Shown here: piece by piece, positions 7,292 through 24,738 of the stretch
How the letters are laid out: each line of letters begins with the position of its first letter
Numbering within the stretch: the stretch's first letter is position 1
Source: Euryarchaeota archaeon UBA605
GTDB taxonomy: Archaea > Thermoplasmatota > Poseidoniia > Poseidoniales > Thalassarchaeaceae
DNA length: 64,000 bases
Assembly: GCA_002504905.1 (NCBI GenBank)
Contig: DATY01000013.1
Span: 76,688-140,687 of the forward strand
Direction: 5' to 3'
Position numbers and translations under genes: made by a program
The notes under the pieces: model-generated
What the model was told of the DNA's origin: nothing
What the model saw: only the letters and a program-made list of their open reading frames with translations
The model's database searches: none

Positions 7292-7909
7292 ATCTAATTC
7301 TTCTATAGCATTCTCTAATTCGTTGAAATTTTGTTCACTTAACTCAGGATTTTCTTTTTCTAAATATATTGTCTTCTTCATACCCTCAAATGGATTTAAG
7401 TCTCTATCTATTCTTTCAATCATTCTCCACCTTGGGGCATAAGATATTTGGATATATATTGGCCCTGGAGAGATCAAAATGAAATATCCTAGTATTTGTA
7501 ATTCTTCAGGGGTAGAGAAAATTATCGTTATTGTAGTGATAAAGAATCCAACGAATGGCAATGGGTAGAGATATCTTCTCCTTCTTTCTAGCCTTACTGG
7601 CGGTATTTTTATCAAAGAAGAAATAACAGTTGAAATAGCACCCAATGAAGCACATAAAAGGATTATTATTAAGCTTTGAAAACCCCATTTCTCTAGTATA
7701 TCTATACTACTTTCAGAATTAGAGTTCCCATCATAAAACATTGGTAATAAAAGTGTTAAGTTTATTATAATTGCATAAACAATACCTACAAAAACTGGAC
7801 TTGAGATTGACAGAGAGTAATTCAAGAATAGTTGACTAATCGAGCCTCCTTCAAGCATATGCCTATGCTCATCATCGTATTCTTCGAGGCGTTCGCGCCA
7901 ATTAGGCAT
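7286..7909 (-). CDS. Hypothetical membrane protein
   Basis: 207-aa ORF with about 4 hydrophobic segments; fills the gap between genes. Confidence 0.6.
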   Translation of the reverse strand: MPNWRERLEEYDDEHRHMLEGGSISQLFLNYSLSISSPVFVGIVYAIIINLTLLLPMFYDGNSNSESSIDILEKWGFQSLIIILLCASLGAISTVISSLIKIPPVRLERRRRYLYPLPFVGFFITTITIIFSTPEELQILGYFILISPGPIYIQISYAPRWRMIERIDRDLNPFEGMKKTIYLEKENPELSEQNFNELENAIEELDS

Positions 7910-8061
7910 AATTTATTCCCTCAATACATTATCTTTCATCATTACGGGTAATTTAATTAAAAAATATTGATTTTTACCCGAATAGAATGATGCGATATTC
8001 TAAACTTAATATCGGAGATATTATGACTTAACTATATTGGGAGAGTATTTTGTGGTACTAG

Positions 8062-9231
8062 ATGAATGATGAAGATGTATTGTTTTCGATTACTGATAAG
8101 AATTTAGATTCTGGACTGAGGGGAGTACCAGTTGGAACTTGTCAAACTTCTTTTGTTGACCCTTATGAAGGGGTTCACTATGTCGGTTATCCTGTTGAAG
8201 ACTTGGTAAATATGGAAGAGGAAGATGTAATATTTTTACTGTTCTATAAGCGTCTACCAACTGAAGAAGAATCACAAGAGTTTCGTGCTGAATTAACACA
8301 GAGAGGGAAAAATATCCCTACAGGAGCACTAAGAGTTCTGGAATCCCTAACTCCCGGTAGCGGTCATCCTATGGAATGGCTTTCAATTGGAATTATGGCT
8401 TTAGGAACTGCGGAAAAAACCGGTGATACCAGGGCTGATGCGATGAATCTTATAGCTAGAATGCCCGAACTTATGGCTAGAATCTTCCGTTTAAGAGGAG
8501 GTGAGAAAGAGAAATTGAAGCCACGAAAACCCGGCCTAGGTTTAGTAGAAAATTTCGTACATATGATGGGTTTTGAAGGTAGTCAAGCGCGTGATATTGA
8601 GAGAGTTCTCAGATTCTTTTTCATTCTCCATATGGATCATGGCGGAGGAAATCTTTCAACATTCTCTGGTAAAGCAGTAGCTTCTGGATGGGCGTCAATT
8701 TACTCTTCTATTTCTAGTGCTATGAACGCTCTTTCAGGGCCTCTTCATGGTCAAGCCAATCAGGCATGTCTTGAGTTCGTCAAAAGAATTGGAACATCTG
8801 ACCATCAGGAAATTGAAGACTTTGTACGTACAGAATTAGCCAATCGTAGGAAAATTTATGGTTTTGGACATGGTGTTTTGAGAGCGGAAGACCCAAGAGC
8901 TCGCTTATTGTTTGAATTAGGTGATGAAATTTGCCCTGAACATGAATATTTCAAAATTGCTAGGGCATTGAGAGAAGTAATTCCTCCTATTCTAAGTGAA
9001 ATCCCAAAGATAAGTAATCCCTATCCAAATGTAGATATTGCTAGTGGAAGTTTACTACACTCAGTTGGTTTCAGGATGCCTGAATATTATACAACATTTT
9101 TTGGCTGGGCAAGAGTTGCAGGAATCAGTGCCCAAATACTTGATGAGAGAAATGCTAGAGATGGACGAGGTACTCCTATTTACAGGCCGAAATATATCCC
9201 TAAGAATCAACCATTAAGAAGAATTGAATAA
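8062..9231 (+). CDS. gltA: Citrate synthase
   Basis: GLRGV, HMDHGGGNLS, GPLHGQAN, YGFGHGVLR..DPR and PNVD motifs. Confidence 0.93.
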   Translation: MNDEDVLFSITDKNLDSGLRGVPVGTCQTSFVDPYEGVHYVGYPVEDLVNMEEEDVIFLLFYKRLPTEEESQEFRAELTQRGKNIPTGALRVLESLTPGSGHPMEWLSIGIMALGTAEKTGDTRADAMNLIARMPELMARIFRLRGGEKEKLKPRKPGLGLVENFVHMMGFEGSQARDIERVLRFFFILHMDHGGGNLSTFSGKAVASGWASIYSSISSAMNALSGPLHGQANQACLEFVKRIGTSDHQEIEDFVRTELANRRKIYGFGHGVLRAEDPRARLLFELGDEICPEHEYFKIARALREVIPPILSEIPKISNPYPNVDIASGSLLHSVGFRMPEYYTTFFGWARVAGISAQILDERNARDGRGTPIYRPKYIPKNQPLRRIE

Positions 9232-9232
9232 A

Positions 9233-10372
9233 TCATGAAGATCTATTTCTGTGCGATTTACCAGTTCCTCTATGTCCGATTATTCTTGGGGCTTCCCAGG
9301 GTAAACTCGATGATGAAGTTTCTTTTATTAATGATTCAATACTTCTCTCCCAAGACCATCTTTTCTTCCAATTAGATATGAAATCTAACCTTTCGCTGTT
9401 AGAAAGTTCATGCCAGGGAGGGATCTCTTTTTTCATTTCATTAACTTTGTTTAGATGTTGGTCGATTGGAGTGTCGTCTAATTCTTTTCGCTGTTTAATT
9501 GTTAGAGGTTGTGTAGCTGGTTTTGTCCATCTCGCGTGGCCCGAATCAAGAGTCACTGAAGTCGGAGCAAGATCATCCGTAAGTCCAGTTAACCCTGCAT
9601 CCAGTAACATTCTTTCAGCATTCGATTTAGAAGGCCAGACATAAATCGGATATCCTTTCCTAAATTTTGTCAGTCTTTCTAATTTCTTCCCTTGTAGACC
9701 AACTGTTCTACCTAAACTTAGGTTACTTTCAATTCCTTTGAGATATTGTAAAGAGCAAGGTAACATTGGAGATTTTTCTCTTCTTTGCTTTTCCATTAGT
9801 CTGGGTAGTGAATTTAGAATAAATGATGGAGTAGCAACGATTCTCTGTGATGTCCAATTACCCCATGAACGTATATTTGGCCTTAATCTACTAAATTTCA
9901 AATTAGTTTTCACTTTTTTAGATGCCGATATAATCTTCGGTTCAAACGAATAAATAACTGCGCCACTATCTGGTAAATCAATAGGTTCTAAGATTTCATT
10001 TAATTGTTCAATCATCTTAATCATATGTTTTTCTCTTTCATTTCCATTTAACCAACCTCCCGCTTTACCACTACTTGGATGTGGGGTCTTAAATTCAAAA
10101 CATGTGAATGCTCCCTCTTCAGTCCATCTTCTAATGAATTCTTTTTTCTCTAATAAATCATCTATTGGCTCTACATAATCAGGTAATTCATCCAACGTCA
10201 AACATTCGGGATATTCTCCAAATTCGGTTTTTGAATCATGATGGAGAACAAGTCGATTATCTTCCGATAATCTCAAATCTAATTCTACTCCATCGCATTC
10301 ACTCATTCCATAAACTAATGCTTCAACAGTATTTTCTCTGGGACGAATCCATTGACCATAATCTTCGTCCAT
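9233..10372 (-). CDS. Glycerophosphodiester phosphodiesterase family protein, circularly permuted
   Basis: Starts with RENT..A...GVELDLRLSEDNRLVLHHD, has FEFK and GLTDD, while the IIGHRG motif lies at the C-terminus. Confidence 0.8.
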   Translation of the reverse strand: MDEDYGQWIRPRENTVEALVYGMSECDGVELDLRLSEDNRLVLHHDSKTEFGEYPECLTLDELPDYVEPIDDLLEKKEFIRRWTEEGAFTCFEFKTPHPSSGKAGGWLNGNEREKHMIKMIEQLNEILEPIDLPDSGAVIYSFEPKIISASKKVKTNLKFSRLRPNIRSWGNWTSQRIVATPSFILNSLPRLMEKQRREKSPMLPCSLQYLKGIESNLSLGRTVGLQGKKLERLTKFRKGYPIYVWPSKSNAERMLLDAGLTGLTDDLAPTSVTLDSGHARWTKPATQPLTIKQRKELDDTPIDQHLNKVNEMKKEIPPWHELSNSERLDFISNWKKRWSWERSIESLIKETSSSSLPWEAPRIIGHRGTGKSHRNRSS

Positions 10373-10468
10373 ATCTCTTGCGAGAGATTATCTAATAATT
10401 AATTAAGCGTTTCTACAAGACTAATCCGCCCCAACGCTAAATAGTAAAAAAGTCAACGCGAGCCTAGT

Positions 10469-12274
10469 ATGAGCATGTCAGATACAATAGAACTTGACCG
10501 AGAATCAGATCCAATAGAAGTTAGAGGTTACGCTTTTTACGATTGGGCTAAATCAGCATTTGAGACCTCTGTAACCGTTGCAGTATTGCCTGCATGGTAT
10601 GCATATCTCTTCTTGAAGGCTAATGGATTAACAACAACCATTGGTTCTATAGAGATGCAAGGGGATGCTGTTTGGTCATTTGCAGTGGCAATTGGTACAC
10701 TTTTTATTGCAATCATTAGTCCATCTTTGGGTGTGATTGCTGATAGAAGAAGAATCAAGATGTGGTGGTTAAGAATACTCACCTATGTAGGTGCAGGTTC
10801 AACTTTCCTTCTAGCATTCGCTCCACTTTTACCTATTGAAACTCAGTGGGTATGGCTAATGGTATTCTTCATGCTAGCTAACGTAGGCCTCAATGGGGCT
10901 GGTGTATTCTACAATGCTCTTCTCCCACATATGGGTAAAGATGATGAGATGGATAGAATTTCTAATTTAGCATTTGCATATGGTTATCTCGGCGGAGGAA
11001 TTTTACTTCTGGTTCATCTTATTATGGTAATGACATTAACTGGAGATTGGGTAATTCCTTTCGTTATGGCTTCATCAGGTATATGGTGGTATAGTTTCGC
11101 TTTATTGACATTCAAATGGGTTCCTGAACCGCCAATTGAGAATGAGATGCCATCTTTAGGATTCGTTTCATCGGCAAAATTAGCAATTTCTGAGATTAAA
11201 AAAACTATTAGTGAAGTTGAAAAATTTAGAACACTCTTCATTTACATGCTAGCATACTTCTTCTTCATTGATGGAATTAATAGTGTGACTGCTCTTGGAG
11301 GTGTATTTGGATCAACTGTACTTGGAATAACAACTGTCGACTTGATTATTACAATTTTAGCAATTCAATTTGTAGCTTGGCCATCAGCATTATTGTTCAC
11401 TAGACTTGCAAGAAAATTGGGCACTAAATCTGCATTAAATATTTCTCTTGTTGGATGGGTTATACTTTGTTTTGCAGCCCTTTCTTTCGCTCCTCTCGAG
11501 TATTCTGATCATGCCGACTATCAAGTTCAATTACATGAAGAACCTGAAGAAGGAGTTTGGTACTTTACTCCTCATGAAAATCTACTTGATTTCCCTATAG
11601 CTCAGATTGAAGGTGGGGATGAGCAAGAGTGGGCAAAATTAAGTCTTGCAGGAATTGTTGAAGTCGATGAAGACTACACTGATACAGAAATTTACAAATG
11701 GGCTGGATTCAATGACGACAATGAACCTATAGCGATTAATTTAGGGGCACTAGGTTCAGATATAAATGATATAATTAATTCATTTGAAGATACTAGATTT
11801 TCTGTAAGCGCTATTTATGGTGATATGAGCGAAATTTCTGTTGTTGGCATAGACCATCCAACAAATCTAGGAGATGGTGTAATTGATATCATTCCGAGTA
11901 CAGTTAGAGATAAAGTTTGGGAACCTCTTGGCCTTACAGTTGGTCTACAATTCTTAATCCTAGGTTGTGCAATGGGTACATTGCTTGGCGGTTCTCAAGG
12001 GCTAGCAAGAAGTATGTTTGGTCAAATGGTTCCAGAAACTAGAAGTGCTGAATTCTTTGGTTTCTTTGGTTTCTTTGGAAAAGTTGCAGCATTCATCGGA
12101 CCATTGTTGTATGGTTTAATGACAGTAATGTTTGATAGTAGAGTTGGAATCTTATCTATAGCAATGCTAATCCTAATTGGAGCAGTAATGATGCGAATGG
12201 TTGATCTTGAGCAAGGACGCTTAGATGCACAAGCAGAAGATGCTAAAAATAGAGGAATTCAAACTGAAGATTGA
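10469..12274 (+). CDS. MFS transporter (UMF1/Atg22-like) with large inserted soluble loop
   Basis: YDWAKSAF, FYNALLP, FFIDG, GGSQGLARSMF...AEFFGFF...GP motifs of the UMF1 family. Confidence 0.88.
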   Translation: MSMSDTIELDRESDPIEVRGYAFYDWAKSAFETSVTVAVLPAWYAYLFLKANGLTTTIGSIEMQGDAVWSFAVAIGTLFIAIISPSLGVIADRRRIKMWWLRILTYVGAGSTFLLAFAPLLPIETQWVWLMVFFMLANVGLNGAGVFYNALLPHMGKDDEMDRISNLAFAYGYLGGGILLLVHLIMVMTLTGDWVIPFVMASSGIWWYSFALLTFKWVPEPPIENEMPSLGFVSSAKLAISEIKKTISEVEKFRTLFIYMLAYFFFIDGINSVTALGGVFGSTVLGITTVDLIITILAIQFVAWPSALLFTRLARKLGTKSALNISLVGWVILCFAALSFAPLEYSDHADYQVQLHEEPEEGVWYFTPHENLLDFPIAQIEGGDEQEWAKLSLAGIVEVDEDYTDTEIYKWAGFNDDNEPIAINLGALGSDINDIINSFEDTRFSVSAIYGDMSEISVVGIDHPTNLGDGVIDIIPSTVRDKVWEPLGLTVGLQFLILGCAMGTLLGGSQGLARSMFGQMVPETRSAEFFGFFGFFGKVAAFIGPLLYGLMTVMFDSRVGILSIAMLILIGAVMMRMVDLEQGRLDAQAEDAKNRGIQTED

Positions 12275-14997: not shown

Positions 14998-15612
14998 ATG
15001 TCAAAATTACCTTTAATTCCACCCCCACCATCTGATTTTCCTGATTCTGGTTTTGTAGTTCTAGGGCGTTTCCAACCATTTCACAAAGGACATGCCGCAA
15101 TGATAATCGCTGCCGAAGAGATTCGTTTAGAAAATTACCCAGAATTGAAATTAATTATCGCAATTGGCTCTTCAAACAGAACTCAGACGCTAAAAAATCC
15201 TTGGTCCGAAACTGAAAGAATCGAGATGATAATGTATTGGCTTGAAAATGAAGCGAATTTCGATGCCACAATCGTATCTATTCCTGATATTGAAGATCCT
15301 CCAAATTGGGTTAGCCATGCAGAAAGATATCATGGAAAGTCTGGAGTATTGTTCAGTAGCGATATCAATACTTGTGAATTATATCAGGCATCAAAATGGT
15401 CGGTAATTTCAACCTCACTAATTGAAAGAGAGAGATTTGAAGGATGGAGAGTACGTGAGACAGCTAGAATGCTTTCTACAATAAATGACGAAGATGCTAT
15501 CAAAATGATTTTAGGACAATCTGTTCCGAAATCAATTATTGTTTTCTTAATTGAAAATGACTATCTAAAAAGACTAGCATTTTTGGGAGAAGGTGGAGAA
15601 CCTGTAGGTTAA
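14998..15612 (+). CDS. nadM: Nicotinamide-nucleotide adenylyltransferase (NadM type)
   Basis: GRFQPFHKGH, IAIGSSN, KNPWS..ER and IPDI...PNW motifs. Confidence 0.85.
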   Translation: MSKLPLIPPPPSDFPDSGFVVLGRFQPFHKGHAAMIIAAEEIRLENYPELKLIIAIGSSNRTQTLKNPWSETERIEMIMYWLENEANFDATIVSIPDIEDPPNWVSHAERYHGKSGVLFSSDINTCELYQASKWSVISTSLIERERFEGWRVRETARMLSTINDEDAIKMILGQSVPKSIIVFLIENDYLKRLAFLGEGGEPVG

Positions 15613-17675
15613 TTTTCTATTAGATCTTCGGGACTAAAATCACAATATCCGTTACAAGTATCTATAATTGTTCCATCGGATAGGAAATTGAATGCCATTT
15701 CCCTGGCTATTGGTAAAACACCTATTGCATCATGTGCTGGATGAGGCTCTTCACCGTATTCATTTCCTACTGGAGCTTGCAGGTATCCTCCATCAAAGAA
15801 TACTCCTACTGATCCTACATGCCCCTCATCTACAATATTGATTCCATAGGGTGTAATTGTTGATGAATTGAGTAAAGCGATATCGCCCGTTCTCATCATT
15901 CTTGCTGACGAGATATTAGAAATCTGTAAGTCAGAAATTGAAAATAAAGTCATCAATTCGAATGGTTGTATTTGATCATTGAAACCCCCTTTCCTCAAAC
16001 TCAAGAATGTGTCTGTTTCAGTCGAATCCCAAAGTGACTGCATTATTGACATTGCAACTGCTCTGTCTAATTGATTATCATATCCATATTCACTAGCGAA
16101 AACAAAATAGAATTTATCAAATTGTGTACATCTCTCAATAATATGTGAAAATGATGAACCTCCTGCCCACAATACTCCTCTATTCAAATCAGGAGATAAT
16201 CCAATTATTGAAGGCCCCCTCAAAGCCCCATTTGAATATCCAGTGTAAGTTGGATTTGTTGTGTTTACCATCTTCGTACCTTCTTCACCATTGTAAAAAT
16301 CAGGTAAATCAGAGCAGACTCCCATGAATGTTTTTATCATGACAACCTGATTAATCATTGCCTGCTCCAATCTTTCAGCCTGATGTTGGAAGTAGTGCAT
16401 GTTTAAAACAGCATATTCAACGCTTGCGAAATCATCATCTGCCCACCCATAAAAACTAGTTCCTAACATTGCAACATTATTTTCATTAGCCCATCCGCTG
16501 AGGCTATTTGTATTCCCATTTCCTAGGAATCCATGGCCCCAAATTATCAAATCAGCAGGTTCTTGACTTTCTACAGCAGAATATGGTATGACTAACCAGA
16601 ATGGAATCTCCCTATTTTCCACGAAAACCGGAGTTCTATCTTCTGCGGATGTTCTCCTAATTAGAGTCGGAGGAAAGAACGATTCTGTATATTGAGGTGC
16701 AGTAAAGGTTCCAGTAATCAGCCAGTGACTCGCATTCCCTCCTTTAGTTTTCATTTCATTAGATTCTATCGTACATCCTATCCCATTTCCAGTTCTCTCT
16801 AAAGCATCGTTCCTCATTGAAATCAGAGGTCCGATAATTGATTCAGTTGAAGAGGTGTGAAAACTCCAAGCGGTTTGTAGTTGATTAATTGAAATATCAG
16901 TATTTACTTCTATCCAAGAGAATAAATTTTGAAACGTAGATCTTCTATTTTCAATATCTAAGGATGAAGTAATTACTTGATCTCTTAATGCAGCAAAGCC
17001 TTCTGGAGTAGGGACTAATTCTCCATTCTCATCTGTTAAACCTGATATGATCACTACATATGGCGTATTATGTTCCAATGCTTTGATTGTTCTAATGTGA
17101 AGTATAGTCGGCTGATCAATCTCAGATCTTACATCAAGTTCTACCCAGTGAGGGACCAATTCTCCTGTTAATTTATTCATTAAAACTGTAGAGTGTCCGC
17201 TTTCCAAGCTTTTTGAAATACTATATTGTCCTGCTAATTGTGAGACATCAGGTTCTTTAGTAAAAGCAGTCATAATTTGTGTATTAGGACTTGCTCCATC
17301 CATCTGATTCAAAATTGGTATCTCTATAGGGTCAACTGTTCCTGAACCCGGTATAGTATTCGAAGAATAATGAATTCTCTTACCTGTAACTGTAGTTTGA
17401 TCATCAACTAGAAAAGCATCAGAAGGGAAAGGTAGCATACAATGAATTGAATTTGTATTATCACAACCATCAATATGTGGGATTTCAAGAATTTCCTGAG
17501 GCTCTTCGTACAAACAGCTTTCATCATCAATTGTAGCATTTTGATTGTAATTTAGTGCATTTGAATCAGTACAACCCAAAATTTCGAAAACCTCATCAGT
17601 TATCTCATCGTTAACAGCAGTACATCCCGAGAGCACCATGGATATACATAATAAAATCACGAGAATTCTATTCAT
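15609..17675 (-). CDS. Lipoprotein, alpha/beta-hydrolase with virulence-factor-lipase-like N-terminal domain
   Basis: Lipobox LSGC, GCTDSNALNYNQNATIDDESC motif, LPFPSD..L, oxyanion-type WGHGFLG, nucleophile elbow GYSNG, C-terminal PAHD. Confidence 0.7.
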   Translation of the reverse strand: MNRILVILLCISMVLSGCTAVNDEITDEVFEILGCTDSNALNYNQNATIDDESCLYEEPQEILEIPHIDGCDNTNSIHCMLPFPSDAFLVDDQTTVTGKRIHYSSNTIPGSGTVDPIEIPILNQMDGASPNTQIMTAFTKEPDVSQLAGQYSISKSLESGHSTVLMNKLTGELVPHWVELDVRSEIDQPTILHIRTIKALEHNTPYVVIISGLTDENGELVPTPEGFAALRDQVITSSLDIENRRSTFQNLFSWIEVNTDISINQLQTAWSFHTSSTESIIGPLISMRNDALERTGNGIGCTIESNEMKTKGGNASHWLITGTFTAPQYTESFFPPTLIRRTSAEDRTPVFVENREIPFWLVIPYSAVESQEPADLIIWGHGFLGNGNTNSLSGWANENNVAMLGTSFYGWADDDFASVEYAVLNMHYFQHQAERLEQAMINQVVMIKTFMGVCSDLPDFYNGEEGTKMVNTTNPTYTGYSNGALRGPSIIGLSPDLNRGVLWAGGSSFSHIIERCTQFDKFYFVFASEYGYDNQLDRAVAMSIMQSLWDSTETDTFLSLRKGGFNDQIQPFELMTLFSISDLQISNISSARMMRTGDIALLNSSTITPYGINIVDEGHVGSVGVFFDGGYLQAPVGNEYGEEPHPAHDAIGVLPIAREMAFNFLSDGTIIDTCNGYCDFSPEDLIEN

Positions 17676-17700: not shown

Positions 17701-18225
17701 TCAATTTTGGTCTTCAGTAACAATAACTTTGACCGGCCTTAAAACACGTTCATGGAACATATATCCCTGTTCAATTACTTCGATAACTGTGCCCGGTTCC
17801 TTTCCTTCGGGGGCAGGAATTACTGCAATTGCTTCCATGAATGAGGGGTTGAATACTTTATCTAAAGCATCAATCTTTTCTACTCCCTCATTTTCTAGAA
17901 CTAACTTCAATGTCTTCGCAGTCAAGTTAACTCCTTCAATAAATTTTTCTGATTCGCTATTCTCGATCGAAATTGCTTTTTCTAAATTATCCAATACTGG
18001 GAGTATTTTTGAAGCCAAATTCATACCTGAGAACTTCATCAAGGTATTTCTCTCCCTGGCATATCTTTGTCTTAGATTTACTAATTCAGCGGCAGAATAT
18101 TGTTTCTCTTTCTCTAATTCCTCAATTTTTCCCTCAAGAATTATTATTGGGTCTACAATTTCAATTTCATCTGATTTTTCTTCCTCAGATAACTCCTCAA
18201 TAGACTCGTCACCCTCTTCTGTCAT
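17701..18225 (-). CDS. grpE: Nucleotide exchange factor GrpE
   Basis: AELVNLRQR, LPVLDNLEKA, FNPSFMEA and QGYMFHERVLRPVKVIV motifs. Confidence 0.93.
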   Translation of the reverse strand: MTEEGDESIEELSEEEKSDEIEIVDPIIILEGKIEELEKEKQYSAAELVNLRQRYARERNTLMKFSGMNLASKILPVLDNLEKAISIENSESEKFIEGVNLTAKTLKLVLENEGVEKIDALDKVFNPSFMEAIAVIPAPEGKEPGTVIEVIEQGYMFHERVLRPVKVIVTEDQN

Positions 18226-18268
18226 GACCCTTGGTTTCAATCATCCTTCAAGAATCCGATGGTCCAAG

Positions 18269-20062
18269 TTATTCGAGATAGAAGTATTCTCCAGCAATCT
18301 TTTGTTCTCTATCTTTCCGACTATCTGGTTTATTGATTCGTGGTCTATGAGACTCATGATCTCTCCTGAAAGTTACATTAACATCTTTTAAGAATTTATT
18401 CATACCTTTTCTTAAACCTAGTGGGCCAATAGCATTTCCTACTTTTCCGCCTTCTCCATCAAAAACTAATAATGAATCACTTACTATATCAATAAAATAG
18501 ATGTCATGATCTATCACCATGGCAGCCTTTTCGTTGCTTTCCATGGTTCTTCTGATTGCTTTAGCAGCCTCCATCCTAGCATTTGCATCAAGATGTGCAC
18601 TTGGTTCGTCTAGGAGATATAAATCAGCCTCTTTTCCTAAGCAAATTACAATACTGACTGCTTGTAATTCTCCCCCAGACAACTTCTTAGCTCTCAATTC
18701 TAGTAATTGGTCAACTTGCAACGGTCTGACAACCTGTGTATGAAACTCACCAGTTCTCCATTTATGTCCTAATTCAGTATTCAACCAATCTTCTACAGTT
18801 CCTTCGAAATCAGTATTTACATGTTGAGGTTTGTATGAAACTTTTGCCTCCATTGTACACCAACCTTGATCTGGTTCGATTTCTCCCGCAATCATTTTCA
18901 CCATGGTAGTTTTTCCAGTTGCATTAGGCCCCACAACTCCTACAACTTCTGCACTCCTGACCATTCCTTGACCTGTCTTCAACTGGAAACTTCCCAGAGT
19001 TTTTTCCATATCTCCCCATTTTAGAATTGGTAAACCAACTTCTTCGCCTCTAACCCTACCTCTCAGGAATTGTATAGGTTTATCTCTAATTCTAACATTT
19101 TCTTCTTTTAAGAACCCTTCAAGGTATGCATTAATAGCGCTTCTAGTTGATCTAGCAGGAGTGAATATTCCGAAAGCTGCTCTTTCTCCGTATACAATGT
19201 GTAAAAGATCACATAAAACGTCTAGAATTGCTAAATCATGCTCCACTACAATTACTCTTTTACCCATCTCTGCTAAATTTTGTATTATCTTCACAATTCT
19301 CATTCTTTCATGTATATCAAGGTAAGATGAAGGCTCATCAAAGAAATATACTTCAGCCTCTTTTAGCATAGTCGCACATATGGCGACTCTTTGCAACTCC
19401 CCACCAGATAATTGCCCTATATTCCTGTCTAAGATATGTGTTATTGCTAATAATTCTGCATATTTCTCCAACTCATCTCTTTCATCAACTTTCTCAAGAA
19501 GTTCTCTAGCATTCCCATCAAAAATCTTAGGTAATTTATCAATATATTGTGGCTTAACAGCAATCCTAACTCCATCATCAGCGACCAATTTTAGATAGTC
19601 TCTCAATTCACCTCTAGGGAATGATTCAATGATATCATCCCATTCTGCAGAGTTAATAGTCCAGTCTCCTAAATTTGGTTGAATAGATCCAGATAACAGA
19701 TTTATTGCAGTAGATTTCCCCATCCCATTAGGGCCCAGTATTCCAACAACCTGCTCTTCTCTAGGCGCTGGTAGTCTAAATAATCTAAATCCATTTTGAT
19801 CATATCTATGGGTCATTTCTCCATCTAGTTCTTCCGGTAAATTTGTAATTATTAATGAATCAAAGGGACATTTATTCACACATATCCCACATCCTATGCA
19901 AAGAGGTTCAGAGATTATCGGTTTACCACTTGAATCATCAAGTATGATACATTCTATTCCATTCCTTACTGGTGGGCAATAAACCCAACATTCAGCGTTG
20001 CATTTTTCCGGGCTACACCTATCTTCAAGAAGTACAGCCACTCTCATATCATTATCTCCCAA
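18269..20062 (-). CDS. rli: Ribosome recycling ATPase ABCE1 (RLI)
   Basis: N-terminal Fe-S motifs CSPEKC...CP and CIGCGICVNKCPF, two ABC NBDs (GPNGMGKS, GPNATGKT, LSGGELQ). Confidence 0.96.
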   Translation of the reverse strand: MGDNDMRVAVLLEDRCSPEKCNAECWVYCPPVRNGIECIILDDSSGKPIISEPLCIGCGICVNKCPFDSLIITNLPEELDGEMTHRYDQNGFRLFRLPAPREEQVVGILGPNGMGKSTAINLLSGSIQPNLGDWTINSAEWDDIIESFPRGELRDYLKLVADDGVRIAVKPQYIDKLPKIFDGNARELLEKVDERDELEKYAELLAITHILDRNIGQLSGGELQRVAICATMLKEAEVYFFDEPSSYLDIHERMRIVKIIQNLAEMGKRVIVVEHDLAILDVLCDLLHIVYGERAAFGIFTPARSTRSAINAYLEGFLKEENVRIRDKPIQFLRGRVRGEEVGLPILKWGDMEKTLGSFQLKTGQGMVRSAEVVGVVGPNATGKTTMVKMIAGEIEPDQGWCTMEAKVSYKPQHVNTDFEGTVEDWLNTELGHKWRTGEFHTQVVRPLQVDQLLELRAKKLSGGELQAVSIVICLGKEADLYLLDEPSAHLDANARMEAAKAIRRTMESNEKAAMVIDHDIYFIDIVSDSLLVFDGEGGKVGNAIGPLGLRKGMNKFLKDVNVTFRRDHESHRPRINKPDSRKDREQKIAGEYFYLE

Positions 20063-20115: not shown

Positions 20116-21366
20116 TCATAATGCAAAGAAACGAAATCTAACATAAATATATGCTGCTAGACCTATTTTTTCGGTTTTTGATAATTGTGTCCTTTCAGAA
20201 AAAACGTCCCCATGGTTTTTCTCTATTTTTTTCATTATCGAATGATAGAATGTAGTCATAGCCGCAGGGGAGTATCTACTAGATTTATCTAGAAGTGGAA
20301 ATAATTTCATCCCCCTCTCTCTATATTTATCTGCTCTCTTTATGTATTCTTTCACAAAAGGTTTCCATCCTGGATGTTTCAAGATATCTTTCCCATTTTT
20401 CAAATCTTCTTCTGAAATTCCATATCTGTTAAGATCCTCTATTGGAAGGTAAATCCTATCTCTCTCAATATCTTCAGCAACATCTCTTAGAATATTTGTT
20501 AATTGCATGTAGATGCCCCATGATTCCGCATATTCTTTCGCCCTTTTATCATCATAACCGTAAATCTCTATGCATACTAGACCAACGGTTGAGGCTACCT
20601 TGTAACAGTATGAATATAGGTCTTCAAAAGTTTCATATCTATTTCGATGAAAATCTTCTTCCATTCCACTTATCATATCATCCAATAATTGTCTAGAAAT
20701 TCCATATTTATTCACAGTATCTTTTAATGCGATAAAAATTGGATCAGTTGATGTCATTCTGCCATACGCAGTTGATAATTTCTTCCTGTAGTAGAATAAC
20801 TGTGACATTTTGTCATTGTAAGAAGATCTATCTAAGACTGGTACTCCCTCAATCAGTCTCTCAATTTTACTCCTGTATTCGATTGATTCCTGGTTTTCTT
20901 CGGAACCTCCCGGAAAATAATCTACATAATCGCCATCGGCAATATCATCAGCTCTCCTACAAAATGCATAGTAAGCCATTATAGATCTTCTTTCTTCTTC
21001 TGGTAGATATTTGAAAGAATGATAGAAATTTCCAGCTTCTCTACGAGTTAACTCTTCACAGTAATCGTATGCAGATTCTACAACATCTGATGGTAACTTA
21101 TTTTCTGACCACAAAGCGGCGTCAATATGTGAAAAAGGATTTACTAATTCTCCTCTAGAGCCAATCACTCCCATGAAGAAAGCACCTTCTCTCAGTGTTT
21201 CTAAAGCGGTAATACTGATTGCATGAACGGCTTCTTTAGTTACATTAACTGCTTTACGTACTCTTTCAATTGGAACAGAATTATTTTCATCGGATACTAA
21301 AGAAATAGATTTCCCAAGGTCATACATGACCTCTGGTTCGGAATCACTAATCTGTCCTCCCGGCAT
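20116..21366 (-). CDS. Phytoene/presqualene-diphosphate synthase (CrtB/HpnD-like)
   Basis: YCEELTRREAGNFYHSF, YAFCRRADDIAD, YCYKVASTVG and QLTNILRDVAED...RIYLP motifs. Confidence 0.88.
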   Translation of the reverse strand: MPGGQISDSEPEVMYDLGKSISLVSDENNSVPIERVRKAVNVTKEAVHAISITALETLREGAFFMGVIGSRGELVNPFSHIDAALWSENKLPSDVVESAYDYCEELTRREAGNFYHSFKYLPEEERRSIMAYYAFCRRADDIADGDYVDYFPGGSEENQESIEYRSKIERLIEGVPVLDRSSYNDKMSQLFYYRKKLSTAYGRMTSTDPIFIALKDTVNKYGISRQLLDDMISGMEEDFHRNRYETFEDLYSYCYKVASTVGLVCIEIYGYDDKRAKEYAESWGIYMQLTNILRDVAEDIERDRIYLPIEDLNRYGISEEDLKNGKDILKHPGWKPFVKEYIKRADKYRERGMKLFPLLDKSSRYSPAAMTTFYHSIMKKIEKNHGDVFSERTQLSKTEKIGLAAYIYVRFRFFAL

Positions 21367-21432
21367 ACTACTTTCATACCAAGCCCAATAGATTCATTAT
21401 TGAACTTCACGCAGGATTGTACAGCCCGTGAA

Positions 21433-22503
21433 TCATGATAAATTCATTTTTTTAGGGCTAATCCCAGTAATCGATAGCCAAATTGATTTCCTCATAATTT
21501 TTTTAATTTCTGATCTTGATACCTTAATTCGGTTTCCATAATCTAGTATATTTCCTTCCCTTAATAATTGTAATGTTCTTTGCCCAATTAGAACAGGTAT
21601 TAAGCACGAGAGACGTAGTCTAAACTGATTTCTTGGTAGCATTTTGATATAATCTACGGCCTCATCAAGATATTTCTCGGCTCTATCAATATAAGAATTA
21701 TACAAAGGTCTGAATTTTTCAATATTTTTCATTTCTAGAAGGTCTTGAGTAGTCATATCAATTCCATCAAGAGTCCTACTTGGAATGTAGCATCTCCCCA
21801 TTTTCAAATCTTCAGGTATATCTCTCAAAATATTGATTAATTGCAAGGACTTACCGAATTTTACTGCTTTTTCAAATAAAATCTCTTTTTTATGATCTCT
21901 CATTGTGAATAGGTGATTTAATGACATATGAGTCCAAAATTCACCAACACTCCCCGCAACCCTGTATGTGTAATCATCCAGTTCATTTTCATTCACTAAT
22001 GATATTATTTTTCCCTCTGATGCATTTGTGAATCTTTCTAAATCCAGTATTTGGCCACTAATAATGATTTGAAGTAATTTTCTTATTTCTTTTCTATCTG
22101 AATCATTTAATTTTTCTGATTTTTCTAAATAACTTATTGGTACAATCGCCTCTTTGAGCAATCTTGCTTCCGCAAAATCTTCCTGAATTTCTGCTAATTC
22201 AGAAAAATCTGGCATTGGATTTTTTTCATCTTGAATTCTTTGATTATATTCTTCGAGTAATTTTAGTAAAATCTTATTTTCGCCTACCTTAGAATCTGCA
22301 ATTGTATCTGACAAACGTGGAAGTAGATACCCTAAACTTATCTGTTTACGAATTTTTTTAGGTAAAACTTTCAAAGTCAAATAAAATGATCTTGAAGTTC
22401 CTTCCAATAGACTATCCATTATTTCTTCAGACTCGCCAACAGTTGACTCGCCCTTTGCCATGGAATCCTGAATACGTCTTATATCTAAGACTCTCGCATT
22501 CAA
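21433..22503 (-). CDS. Squalene-synthase-class (SQS/FdfT-like) isoprenoid synthase
   Basis: TSRSFYLTL (FLAP motif), RLSDTIAD, YTYRVAGSVGEFWT and LQLINILRDIPED..GRCYIP motifs. Confidence 0.85.
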   Translation of the reverse strand: MNARVLDIRRIQDSMAKGESTVGESEEIMDSLLEGTSRSFYLTLKVLPKKIRKQISLGYLLPRLSDTIADSKVGENKILLKLLEEYNQRIQDEKNPMPDFSELAEIQEDFAEARLLKEAIVPISYLEKSEKLNDSDRKEIRKLLQIIISGQILDLERFTNASEGKIISLVNENELDDYTYRVAGSVGEFWTHMSLNHLFTMRDHKKEILFEKAVKFGKSLQLINILRDIPEDLKMGRCYIPSRTLDGIDMTTQDLLEMKNIEKFRPLYNSYIDRAEKYLDEAVDYIKMLPRNQFRLRLSCLIPVLIGQRTLQLLREGNILDYGNRIKVSRSEIKKIMRKSIWLSITGISPKKMNLS

Positions 22504-22505
22504 GT

Positions 22506-23426
22506 TTATCTTAAACCACTATCTTTCAAAGCTTTGACGAGAACATTTCCAATTTCCGAGGGGTCTCTAGCAACATAAATTCCTGCTTCTTCAAATGCCT
22601 TGAATTTCTCTGCTGCAGTACCTTTTCCTCCTGAAATTATTGCACCTGCATGACCCATTCTTTTTCCAGGTGGGGCAGTCGAACCTGCAACGAAACCAAC
22701 TATGGGTTTTGTCATATTCTTTGATGCCCATTCCGCGGCTTCTTCTTCTGCCGAACCTCCGATTTCCCCAATCATTACTACTGCTACTGTTTGAGGATCT
22801 TTTTCAAAAGCGTCTAAACAATCGATAAAACCAGTTCCGTTAATCGGATCTCCGCCGATTCCTACACAAGTTGATTGCCCTTCCCCTACGCTCATAGTTT
22901 GTGCAACCGCTTCGTAGGTCAGAGTGCCTGATTTCGATACAATCCCTATTCTTCCCTTAGCATGAATAAATCCTGGCATTATCCCGGCTTTAGTACCACC
23001 ATTATCTCCAGGAGTGATTATACCAGGGCAATTTGGTCCAATTAACCTAACTCTCGAATATTGATTAACTCTAGCAACCGCTTTAACCATATCCAAAATA
23101 GGTATTCCTTCAGTAATACAAACGATCAACCCTTCACCTTTTTCTTGAAATGCATCTGCGGCTTCAATAATTGCTGCAGCAGCGAATCTAGCTGGGACAT
23201 AAATCAAGCTCACATCTGCCTCGGTAACTTCTAGTGCTTCTGAAACAGTATTGAAAACCGGGACTTTCTTATTTGGTAATTCTACAAACTGACCTCCTTT
23301 TCCTGGAGTGACTCCACCAACAACATTTGTATTATATTCATCCATTTTTGTCCCATGGAAAGTACCCTGTTTGCCAGTGATTCCTTGAATTAGGACTTTA
23401 CTATCTTCATGAATCCAGATTGACAT
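22506..23426 (-). CDS. sucD: Succinyl-CoA ligase alpha subunit
   Basis: [28 protein letters not shown] and RMGHAGA motifs. Confidence 0.96.
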
Positions 23427-24634
23427 TATTCCACACTCCTAGTAAGATATACAATTTTTTCCGCACCTTCTGCAAGAGTACTTGCCGTATGTACATCTAA
23501 ATCACAATTATCTAATACTTCTTTCCCTTCAACATGATTAGTTCCAGAAAATCTTACCACTAAAGGTACTTTCAATCCAAGATCATTTGATGCTTCTATC
23601 ACACTTCTAGCAACCATATCACATTGAATAATACCTCCAAAAATATTTACCAATATTCCTTCGACATTATCGTCTTCAAGTATAATTCCGAATGCAGTAG
23701 TTATTGATTCTCTAGTAGCTCCTCCACCAATATCGAGGAAATTTGCAGGCTCTCCACCATATAATTTTATCACATCCATTGATGCCATTGCAAGTCCAGC
23801 ACCGTTGACTAGACAACCAATGTTTCCGTCTAATTTGACGTATGACAAACCGTGGTCATGAGCCCTAGTCTCTACTTCCTCTTCCTCTGAATGATCTCTC
23901 ATTTCTTCCATCCAAGGATGTCTAAATGATGCATTATCATCAAAACTAACCTTTGCATCTAAAGCAATCATTTCTCCTGAATCGGACCTCACTAACGGAT
24001 TAATCTCAATCATAGAACAGTCCTTTTCAACGAATAATCTAGATAACGACTTTAGCATTGAAACTAATTCTTGTTTTGATTTCCCTTCTAAATCGAGCTT
24101 TTCTGCCATTTCGACAGCATCTTTTTCATTCAATCCATCTATTGGATGAGTCCAAATTTTATGAATTGCTTCTGGCGTGTTTTCTGCGACTTCTTCAATA
24201 TCCATACCTCCCTCAGTAGACGCCATGATTAGAATTGATTTTTCCTCTCTATCAACAAGTAGTGCCAAGTAATATTCATGAGCGATTGAGCAACCAGCTT
24301 CTACATACAAATTATTTACTATTTTTCCATCAGATCCTGTTTGTTTTGTCACAAGTCTTCTTCCAATAATATTTTCTGCATATTTTTCTACCTCTTCTCT
24401 AGAAAAAGCAATTTTTACTCCTCCTTCCATTACCAAATCGTCAGTTTCTTGGTCATAAAGAGTCCCTTTACCTCTACCTCCTGCATGAATTTGTGATTTT
24501 ACTGCTACTACCTTAGTTCCCAATTTGTCGTATGCATCAAGAGCATCGCTCACCGTTTTGCAATGTATTCCATCCTGAACTTTAACTCCCGCTTGCTTAA
24601 ACAGAATTTTACCTTGATATTCGTGAATATTCAT
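23426..24634 (-). CDS. sucC: Succinyl-CoA ligase beta subunit
   Basis: [40 protein letters not shown] and NIFGGI motifs. Confidence 0.96.
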
Positions 24635-24738
24635 ATCTCTCAACCTTCCGAGTGGAAGTCGCTCTTTGAACGATGCGCCTATCGATGTTCAAATCTTGGG
24701 CACGAAGTGCTGAAATCCATTGCCATATCCGGTGAAGT

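Follow-up and report, generated by a model that had tools for sequence, protein, structure and literature searches.

A squalene-synthase-like gene fills the hpnC/hpnE slot beside a predicted hpnD orthologue in Poseidoniales archaea, forming a probable squalene-synthesis locus

The DNA studied here is a stretch of 64,000 nucleotides (nt) from the Poseidoniales genome Euryarchaeota archaeon UBA605 (assembly GCA_002504905.1, contig DATY01000013.1, positions 76,688 to 140,687; hereafter the window), and our subject is a pair of adjacent genes within it, A and B, whose products both belong to the SQS_PSY family of isoprenoid synthases (Pfam cutoff 26 bits). A sequence-only reading of the window had described two neighbouring, co-oriented isoprenoid synthase genes of different classes downstream of sucCD, and we confirmed the open reading frames (ORFs), their order and their SQS_PSY matches. 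The genes lie in tandem on one strand; the term ‘head-to-head’ that had been used of them refers to 1'-1 condensation chemistry. Homologues of its genes carry the annotations Poseidoniaceae, Thalassarchaeaceae or Poseidoniales, which makes the organism a Marine Group II archaeon. The source assembly spans 1.44 Mb and is 85% complete, and the incompleteness of metagenome-assembled genomes (MAGs) bears on all calls of gene absence made below. The features of the locus are as follows.

23426–24643, minus strand: sucC, which with sucD encodes succinyl-CoA ligase (Pfam ATP-grasp_2, Ligase_CoA and CoA_binding found for the two)
22506–23426, minus strand: sucD, with sucC the upstream edge of the frame conserved in Poseidoniaceae loci
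21433–22503, minus strand: B, squalene-synthase-like (FdfT/Sqs type), 356 amino acids (aa), TTG start, SQS_PSY 151 bits
22384–22395, minus strand: flap motif SRSF of B, aa 37–40, invariant in alignment A1 and equivalent to S51–F54 of human squalene synthase (SQS)
22294–22308, minus strand: Asp-rich motif 1 of B, DTIAD, aa 66–70, with D66 and D70 invariant
21808–21822, minus strand: Asp-rich motif 2 of B, DIPED, aa 228–232, with D228 and D232 invariant
21574–21609, minus strand: segment SCLIPVLIGQRT of B, counterpart of human SQS FCAIPQVMAIATL, with Ser/Ala at the F288 position and Val at the Q293 position
21367–21432, minus strand: spacer of 66 nt between the B and A ORFs
20116–21366, minus strand: A, predicted HpnD orthologue, 416 aa, ATG start, SQS_PSY 229 bits
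21082–21366, minus strand: N-terminal extension of A, aa 1–95, with a conserved block at aa 33–92 (21091–21270)
20824–20934, minus strand: insertion in A of ~35 aa that follows DDIAD, aa 145–181, adding a helix at aa 159–171
18269–20062, minus strand: ABCE1/RLI ATPase (Pfam Fer4_RLI and two ABC_tran), the downstream edge of the frame in Poseidoniaceae
17701–18240, minus strand: grpE, in the same minus-strand gene run

The start codon of B lies 2 nt past the stop codon of sucD, and 53 nt separate A from ABCE1. For B, an ATG at 22461 or 22419 is the probable true start, given that conservation within the family starts at about aa 28 and residues 1–20 are modelled with a low predicted local distance difference test (pLDDT) score. 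All motifs quoted for the two proteins in the sequence-only reading were located, those of A being NFYHSF (aa 113–118), DDIAD (aa 140–144) and DVAED (aa 295–299). The N-terminal extension of A, put there at roughly 85 aa, measured ~90–95 aa (with the Pfam domain beginning at aa 108 and the CrtM alignment at aa 97), and the insertion reported after DDIAD was found, with a length of ~35 aa.

In a class sample of 151 genomes, every one of the 106 Poseidoniales genomes carried gene A, at 54–100% identity and including the N-terminal region from about residue 20–33; it was not found in the Marine Group III genomes of that sample. Among NCBIfam models (cutoffs: HpnD TIGR03465, 278.6 bits; HpnC TIGR03464, 250.45; HpnE TIGR03467, 283; squalene synthase TIGR01559, 286.75; CrtB NF045686, NF042419 and NF045921, 480–550), the best for A was HpnD with 220.5 bits, a score under the cutoff, as the match is broken into two stretches by the insertion. 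The second-best was cyanobacterial CrtB (196 bits), and the scores on the three CrtB models, 196, 129 and 115 bits, were all under cutoff. The best annotated match to A in a plasmid collection (tblastn) was a Streptomyces HpnD (33% identity, E = 5e-42) that sits within an hpnC-hpnD-hpnE-shc cluster, compared with about 1e-24 for CrtB; JGI labels A homologues ‘phytoene synthase’.

In a tree of the family, with support given as Shimodaira–Hasegawa-like approximate likelihood ratio test (SH-aLRT) values, A and a paralogue, C (described below), formed a clade (95) inside the HpnD/HpnC reference group (91), apart from CrtB and CrtM; the order among the HpnD references was not settled. The branching of A tracked the two Poseidoniales families regardless of the partner gene, and the A of the window was sister to that of genome G148, which has an hpnE-hpnC locus. 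Orthologues of A (54–85% identity) were clustered with hpnE-hpnC in 14 Poseidoniales genomes; the A of the window genome was not so clustered. Together, these comparisons identify A as an orthologue of HpnD that was vertically inherited, and predict for it the role of a presqualene diphosphate (PSPP) synthase.

The N-terminal extension of A is found neither in bacterial HpnD nor in paralogue C, while the insertion after DDIAD is common to A and C and was not seen in any bacterial HpnD compared; both are also missing from four bacterial HpnDs encoded in tandem behind a B-type gene. Residues 1–30 vary in sequence, and disorder is predicted there (AlphaFold2 (AF2) pLDDT below 50 for residues 1–29). 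The block at 33–92 is modelled, with moderate confidence only (pLDDT 56–78 for residues 30–90), as three short helices, and it contains positions invariant across both families in alignment A2: R37, V40, A46, T53, L74, P77, F78, A83, W86 and P92. No transmembrane segment was predicted in A or B, and no 19-residue window of either exceeded a Kyte–Doolittle value of 1.2. As speculation, the extension may serve partner docking or membrane association. At the other end of the protein, Thalassarchaeaceae orthologues (for example L018:1345-2652; columns 489–506 of A2) carry an extra tail of ~18 aa, (F/L)LxPxWxGLARIGxLPxV, which is missing from Poseidoniaceae copies and from the A of the window.

The deepest split in the tree (99) set B, bacterial FdfT-type proteins, human SQS and a haloarchaeal SQS-like protein apart from CrtB/CrtM, HpnC, HpnD, A and C. 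This phylogeny, a check proposed with the sequence-only reading, upheld its assignment of the two genes to different classes, B to the squalene-synthase clade and A to the HpnD/HpnC/CrtB clade. Poseidoniales B proteins were monophyletic (100) and nested among bacterial FdfT-type proteins (98 and 99). The nearest named relatives, from Burkholderia, Cupriavidus and Caballeronia (35–38% identity over ~90% of the length), are annotated as ‘farnesyl-diphosphate farnesyltransferase’ or ‘phytoene/squalene synthase family’, and a scan of species representatives found the family also in Acidobacteria, Chloroflexota, Nitrospirales, Methylomirabilota/Rokubacteria, Binatia, Verrucomicrobiota and Elusimicrobia.

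The AF2 model of B (pLDDT 90.4) had as its top Foldseek matches in the PDB the SQS structures of human, T. cruzi and A. flavus, over the full length and with a query template-modelling score (TMq) of 0.72–0.74, compared with 0.60–0.64 for CrtM; a profile search gave 35 bits between B and the HpnC structure 4hd1. Residues described as key in SQS are S51, S53, Y171, Q212 and two DxxED motifs (PMC4823828). Mapping human SQS through an alignment with a Burkholderia family member and the B-family alignment A1, we found that B keeps the equivalents of S51, S53, Y73, R77, D80, D84, Y171, Q212, R218, D219, D223 and R228, and that K-x-x-R is present in the region of the JK loop; S51, S53, Y171, Q212 and the two Asp-rich motifs have invariant counterparts throughout the B family. 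On its clustering, B belongs to the FdfT/Sqs clade found in company with a lone HpnD. Two B homologues (P0030 and P0065; columns 148–186 of A1) have an extra ~38 aa inserted in the loop that precedes the conserved DR..IR helix; EDRELNQEDLERLALIANGGEGGANKVSIETIRNYNIA is one example.

A slot census, in which sucC, sucD, HpnE, HpnC, B, A and ABCE1 were run by tblastn against 40 loci, revealed a constant frame in Poseidoniaceae, sucC-sucD-[X]-A-ABCE1, with three fillings of the variable position X.

X = hpnE-hpnC (type 1), 14 of 106 genomes: G148 (of the window's genus), G062, G132 and also G024, where hpnE-hpnC lies upstream of A-ABCE1 and sucCD falls outside the stretch examined
X = hpnE-B (type 2), 7 of 106 genomes: G066, G078, G110, G120 and two Thalassarchaeaceae that have hpnE in inverted orientation, plus B
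X = B alone (type 3), 83 of 106 genomes: the window, G135, G133, G121, G014, G126, G018, G109 and others

Two of the 106 genomes were left untyped, with A at a contig edge, and all three types occurred within a single genus (g6). B was found in 90 of the 106 genomes, seven of which still have hpnE, and every one of the 90 also carries A. In 14 of the 16 genomes that lack B, a true HpnE (284–346 bits on TIGR03467) was encoded 1.1–1.4 kb upstream of A. The gene between hpnE and A encodes a true HpnC, at 280–297 bits on TIGR03464 for the three proteins scored, and all 14 Poseidoniales HpnC proteins were 58–68% identical to the G024 HpnC used as query. B adjoined A in all 26 B-bearing loci examined, including a few (G086 and G102) in which B is inverted relative to A; for Poseidoniales this contradicts the published statement that no Sqs lies near HpnD (PMC7306690). 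At this slot, hpnC, alone or together with hpnE, has been replaced by B.

We asked what accompanies B-type genes in bacteria, using 50 carrier genomes from about eight phyla that were searched for HpnD and HpnE. An HpnD-family gene was present in 46 of them (35 over cutoff, most of the others at 254–276 bits), and most of the 50 had a single HpnD-family match at E <= 1e-30. Since HpnC would itself match the HpnD model (Poseidoniales HpnC proteins score 160–178 bits on it), yet a single match was seen, HpnC is absent from most carriers. HpnE passed its cutoff in seven of the 50, all Burkholderiaceae and each with the gene directly beside hpnD; 38 had no HpnE-like match at E <= 1e-30, and five gave weaker matches. 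Once a B-type gene had arrived, loss of hpnC was thus nearly universal and loss of hpnE usual, while hpnD was hardly ever lost. Such asymmetric loss is what a relay from HpnD to B would predict and is hard to explain if B is a complete squalene synthase, so that it favours the relay.

A B-type gene and hpnD stood in tandem in 4 of 74 bacterial loci (Terriglobales, Limnohabitans, Ramlibacter and one proteobacterial MAG), and the two may travel together as a module. The tandems, L108:2974-4946 (Terriglobales MAG), L131:3004-4844 (Limnohabitans sp. DM1), L137:2998-4828 (RAM1) and L141:1422-3271 (Ramlibacter MAG), have the archaeal gene order and short gaps. Among Burkholderiaceae, seven genomes of Caballeronia, Paraburkholderia and Burkholderia (G151–G154, G160, G161 and G191; loci L074–L077, L083, L084 and L125) have hpnD with hpnE directly behind it, no match in the HpnC range and an FdfT-type gene elsewhere, an arrangement that is the bacterial counterpart of the archaeal hpnE-B-hpnD state. 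In Mycetohabitans (L057), hpnD-shc occurs without hpnC or hpnE alongside. No hpnD adjoined the B-type gene of one marine Limisphaerales member among the neighbouring genes checked.

A search of the window genome with PF00494 returned three family members, A, B and C. Paralogue C (340 aa) is 41% identical to A and shares its insertion, without the N-terminal extension. It lies on another contig, C29, about 1 kb from the only Amino_oxidase gene of the genome, which is of the crtI family (473 bits on TIGR02734, cutoff 238), in the following cluster (L006:7342-10970).

7342–8910, plus strand: crtI-family desaturase
8913–9506: ORF of 197 aa with no family match
9517–9945: ABA4-like gene
9948–10970, minus strand: paralogue C

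This agrees with the earlier statement that the window itself holds no hpnE or crtI, and of the genes for which a genome-wide search had been suggested, crtI was found, on C29, and hpnE was not: tblastn against the window genome detected no HpnE, HpnC or SHC. In over 20 further Poseidoniales genomes a C-type copy lay directly beside crtI, a lower bound, as the class-wide search for C (at 1e-85) missed more divergent crtI-linked copies. C is therefore likely, by its sequence and position, to be a phytoene synthase and could serve the rhodopsin encoded in the genome (C23:17668-18348). Because C groups with A (95) and not with CrtB/CrtM, this putative archaeal phytoene synthase appears to derive from an HpnD-like ancestor. 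No match to beta-carotene dioxygenase (blh, PF15461) was obtained in the window genome, and control genomes were equally without a match; the lycopene cyclase model PF05834 gave weak N-terminal Rossmann matches. Since C stands beside crtI, A and B need another explanation, and a role of A as phytoene synthase was rejected for the window genome on that ground, with a possible side activity in genera that lack C.

Elsewhere in the order, crtI was not found in G002 (98% complete), G121 (97% complete), G022, G028, G076, G092, G095, G104, G117 and others; all of those named keep A and almost all keep B. Five Poseidoniaceae, G018 (L069), G127 (L070), G141 (L071), G012 (L072) and G024 (L073), each have a crtI-ABA4 cluster with no C-type synthase within 3–6 kb on either side (less at contig ends), and G018, G127 and G141 have a single A-like gene genome-wide. 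Phytoene or diapophytoene for CrtI might there come from a moonlighting A; alternatively, squalene might be what CrtI acts on.

We propose that A and B probably constitute a squalene-synthesis locus that works as a relay through PSPP. The proposal builds on the orthology of A, the clade membership of B, the slot replacement and the co-occurrence counts documented above, and from sequence comparison we infer how the two enzymes share the work, which cofactor is used and that the product is C30. A would condense a pair of farnesyl diphosphate (FPP) molecules into PSPP, and B would convert PSPP to squalene by reductive rearrangement, presumably dependent on NAD(P)H; with that reaction in place, the hydroxysqualene step of HpnC and the flavoprotein HpnE would become unnecessary. 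B would accordingly have been able to take the place of hpnC, and in most lineages of hpnE as well, at exactly the same chromosomal slot. A two-enzyme PSPP relay had been one of the two options offered by the sequence-only reading, in which it made an uncharacterised hydrocarbon. Synteny and co-occurrence support the relay best, while the expected product is ordinary squalene and not a new hydrocarbon. Given that some lineages still have hpnE beside B, hydroxysqualene might yet arise as a by-product or intermediate.

Several observations weigh against this proposal. B passes no NCBIfam equivalog cutoff (62.8 bits on squal_synth TIGR01559 against 286.75; 74 on HpnC against 250), although its alignment to TIGR01559 spans the full length. 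The position of human SQS F288 is Ser, Ala or Thr in the B family (Ser299 in B) and that of Q293 is Val or Ile, and therefore the second-step chemistry of B may differ from that of canonical SQS; F288 is the residue mutated in the PSPP-complex structures 3wej (F288A) and 3wek (F288L). Co-occurrence of HpnD with B is no proof of dependence. HpnE is kept together with a B-type gene in seven Poseidoniales and in Burkholderiaceae, which, for those lineages at least, would be consistent with a B that forms hydroxysqualene. Finally, the tree has long reference branches and was built by a quick search, with SH-aLRT as its one measure of support.

An alternative that we consider unlikely, while taking it seriously, is that B is a self-sufficient squalene synthase, making squalene from two FPP and NADPH, with A kept for another job, whether as a versatile C30/C40 condensing enzyme feeding CrtI in genomes that have no dedicated phytoene synthase or as a redundant source of PSPP. 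B does keep residues for both half-reactions, including the Y171 equivalent, on a full-length SQS-like fold, and Sqs has been treated as a functional displacement of HpnCDE (PMC7306690). The several Poseidoniaceae with crtI-ABA4 and no C nearby, three of them with one A-like gene, are also consistent with this, as is the branching of C with A, by which the lineage can probably evolve phytoene synthase activity. A self-sufficient B predicts, however, that hpnD should be lost about as readily as hpnC, whereas HpnD was kept in 46 of 50 bacteria and 90 of 90 archaea and HpnC was nearly always gone. The retention of A in genomes without any crtI, and its place beside B throughout the order even where B is inverted, likewise argue against it. 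We regard as highly improbable that B acts like HpnC, turning PSPP into hydroxysqualene, which, or a derivative of which, would be the end product in genomes lacking HpnE. B occupies the slot of HpnC, has hpnE beside it in seven Poseidoniales and carries a non-aromatic residue at the F288 position, and hpnE stands beside hpnD in Burkholderiaceae without hpnC; against this, B is SQS-like by phylogeny and structure and far from HpnC, both in the tree and in its score to 4hd1. About 78% of Poseidoniales and 38 of the 50 bacterial carriers have no HpnE-like match, and such carriers include hopanoid-producing Cupriavidus, which presumably needs squalene itself. An assignment of B and A as a plain HpnC/HpnD pair was rejected, with B at 74 bits on the HpnC model and the true Poseidoniales HpnC proteins in a separate clade.

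The other option of the sequence-only reading, two independent routes in which membrane squalene comes from B and the phytoene behind carotenoids and retinal from A, was not supported, and we give it very little credence. The CrtB model as second-best for A, the JGI label and the rhodopsin in the genome speak for it. C, however, sits close to crtI and an ABA4-like gene here, and likewise in more than 20 genomes; orthologues of A stand in hpnE-hpnC-A clusters; A and B persist where crtI is absent; and the closest annotated relative of A is HpnD rather than CrtB, by the E values given above. In an archaeon with geranylgeranyl diphosphate (GGPP) as the dominant part of its isoprenoid pool, it is also conceivable, if quite improbable, that the pair uses GGPP or a mixture of FPP and GGPP to make C40 hydrocarbons of the lycopaoctaene type or C35 hybrids, in a split relay through prephytoene or PSPP-like intermediates, with the extension and insertion of A adapting it to a longer substrate or to docking with B.

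The squalene relay that we propose can be set beside three known systems and one analogue. In the bacterial three-enzyme HpnC-HpnD-HpnE pathway (Pan et al. 2015, from the accounts in PMC7306690 and PMC5462960), the first step, from two FPP to PSPP, is presumably the same as that of A, and ~13% of the sampled Poseidoniales have the complete hpnE-hpnC-A set at the same locus, with HpnC and HpnE over their cutoffs. The window genome differs in lacking hpnC and hpnE, with B in their place, and A differs from bacterial HpnD in its extension of ~90 aa and insertion of ~35 aa. The second comparison is with bacteria that have FdfT/Sqs and a lone HpnD, among them Paraburkholderia, Caballeronia, Cupriavidus, Acidobacteria, Verrucomicrobia and Rokubacteria (PMC5462960, PMC7306690), to whose proteins B is 35–45% identical and among which it is nested (98–99). 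As in the window genome, HpnD is kept, HpnC lost and HpnE usually lost, and the same hypothesis has been raised, that FdfT turns PSPP directly into squalene; the difference is that Poseidoniales B is the immediate neighbour of hpnD, at the place once held by hpnC/hpnE, an adjacency seen in 4 of 74 bacterial loci.

With eukaryote-type SQS (FDFT1; PDB 1ezf, 3vj8 and 3wca), B shares fold and length, at TMq 0.72–0.74 over ~330 columns, together with the SRSF flap, both Asp-rich motifs and the equivalents of Y73, R77, Y171, Q212, R218 and R228. It differs in its ~20% identity, in not keeping F288 and Q293, in having no C-terminal membrane anchor and in always being accompanied by a separate, predicted PSPP synthase. 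In Botryococcus braunii squalene synthesis is split between SSL-1 and SSL-2: one SQS-family enzyme reportedly makes PSPP, which a second reduces and rearranges to squalene (Niehaus et al. 2011). The likeness to A and B is a functional analogy only, with an independent origin: SSL-1 and SSL-2 are SQS paralogues that diverged from one another recently, while A and B belong to the family's two deepest branches. The SQS family context of the Botryococcus enzymes is given in PMC4823828.

The gene content and the relay idea have been published, and the locus is no new kind of system. A relay was suggested for Acidobacteria with hpnD and fdfT and without hpnC/hpnE, and was there called untested (Sinninghe Damste et al. 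2017; PMC5462960); a degenerate HpnCDE set with Sqs in Poseidoniia was attributed to lateral transfer and displacement (Santana-Molina et al. 2020; PMC7306690). We did not find in these two papers the swap at a fixed slot with all intermediate states in one genus, the consistent adjacency of B and A in Poseidoniales and a few bacteria, the present co-occurrence counts or the conserved N-terminal extension of A.

Marine Group II archaea rank with the most abundant archaea of the plankton; they are uncultured, and their lipids are inferred from genomes. The locus most likely indicates, from its gene content, that they synthesize squalene and by which route. It offers a natural series of three states at a fixed slot, from hpnE-hpnC-hpnD through hpnE-B-hpnD to B-hpnD. 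Combined with the asymmetry by which HpnD is retained in about eight bacterial phyla, this series is strong comparative evidence for a putative ‘third route’ in which HpnD would make PSPP and an FdfT-type enzyme would reduce it, and the locus supplies gene pairs with which that route can conveniently be tested.

Elsewhere in the window, at 15609–17675 on the minus strand, an ORF of 688 aa begins with a lipoprotein-like N-terminal signal, MNRILVILLCISMVLSGC, and had no Pfam match at E <= 0.01.

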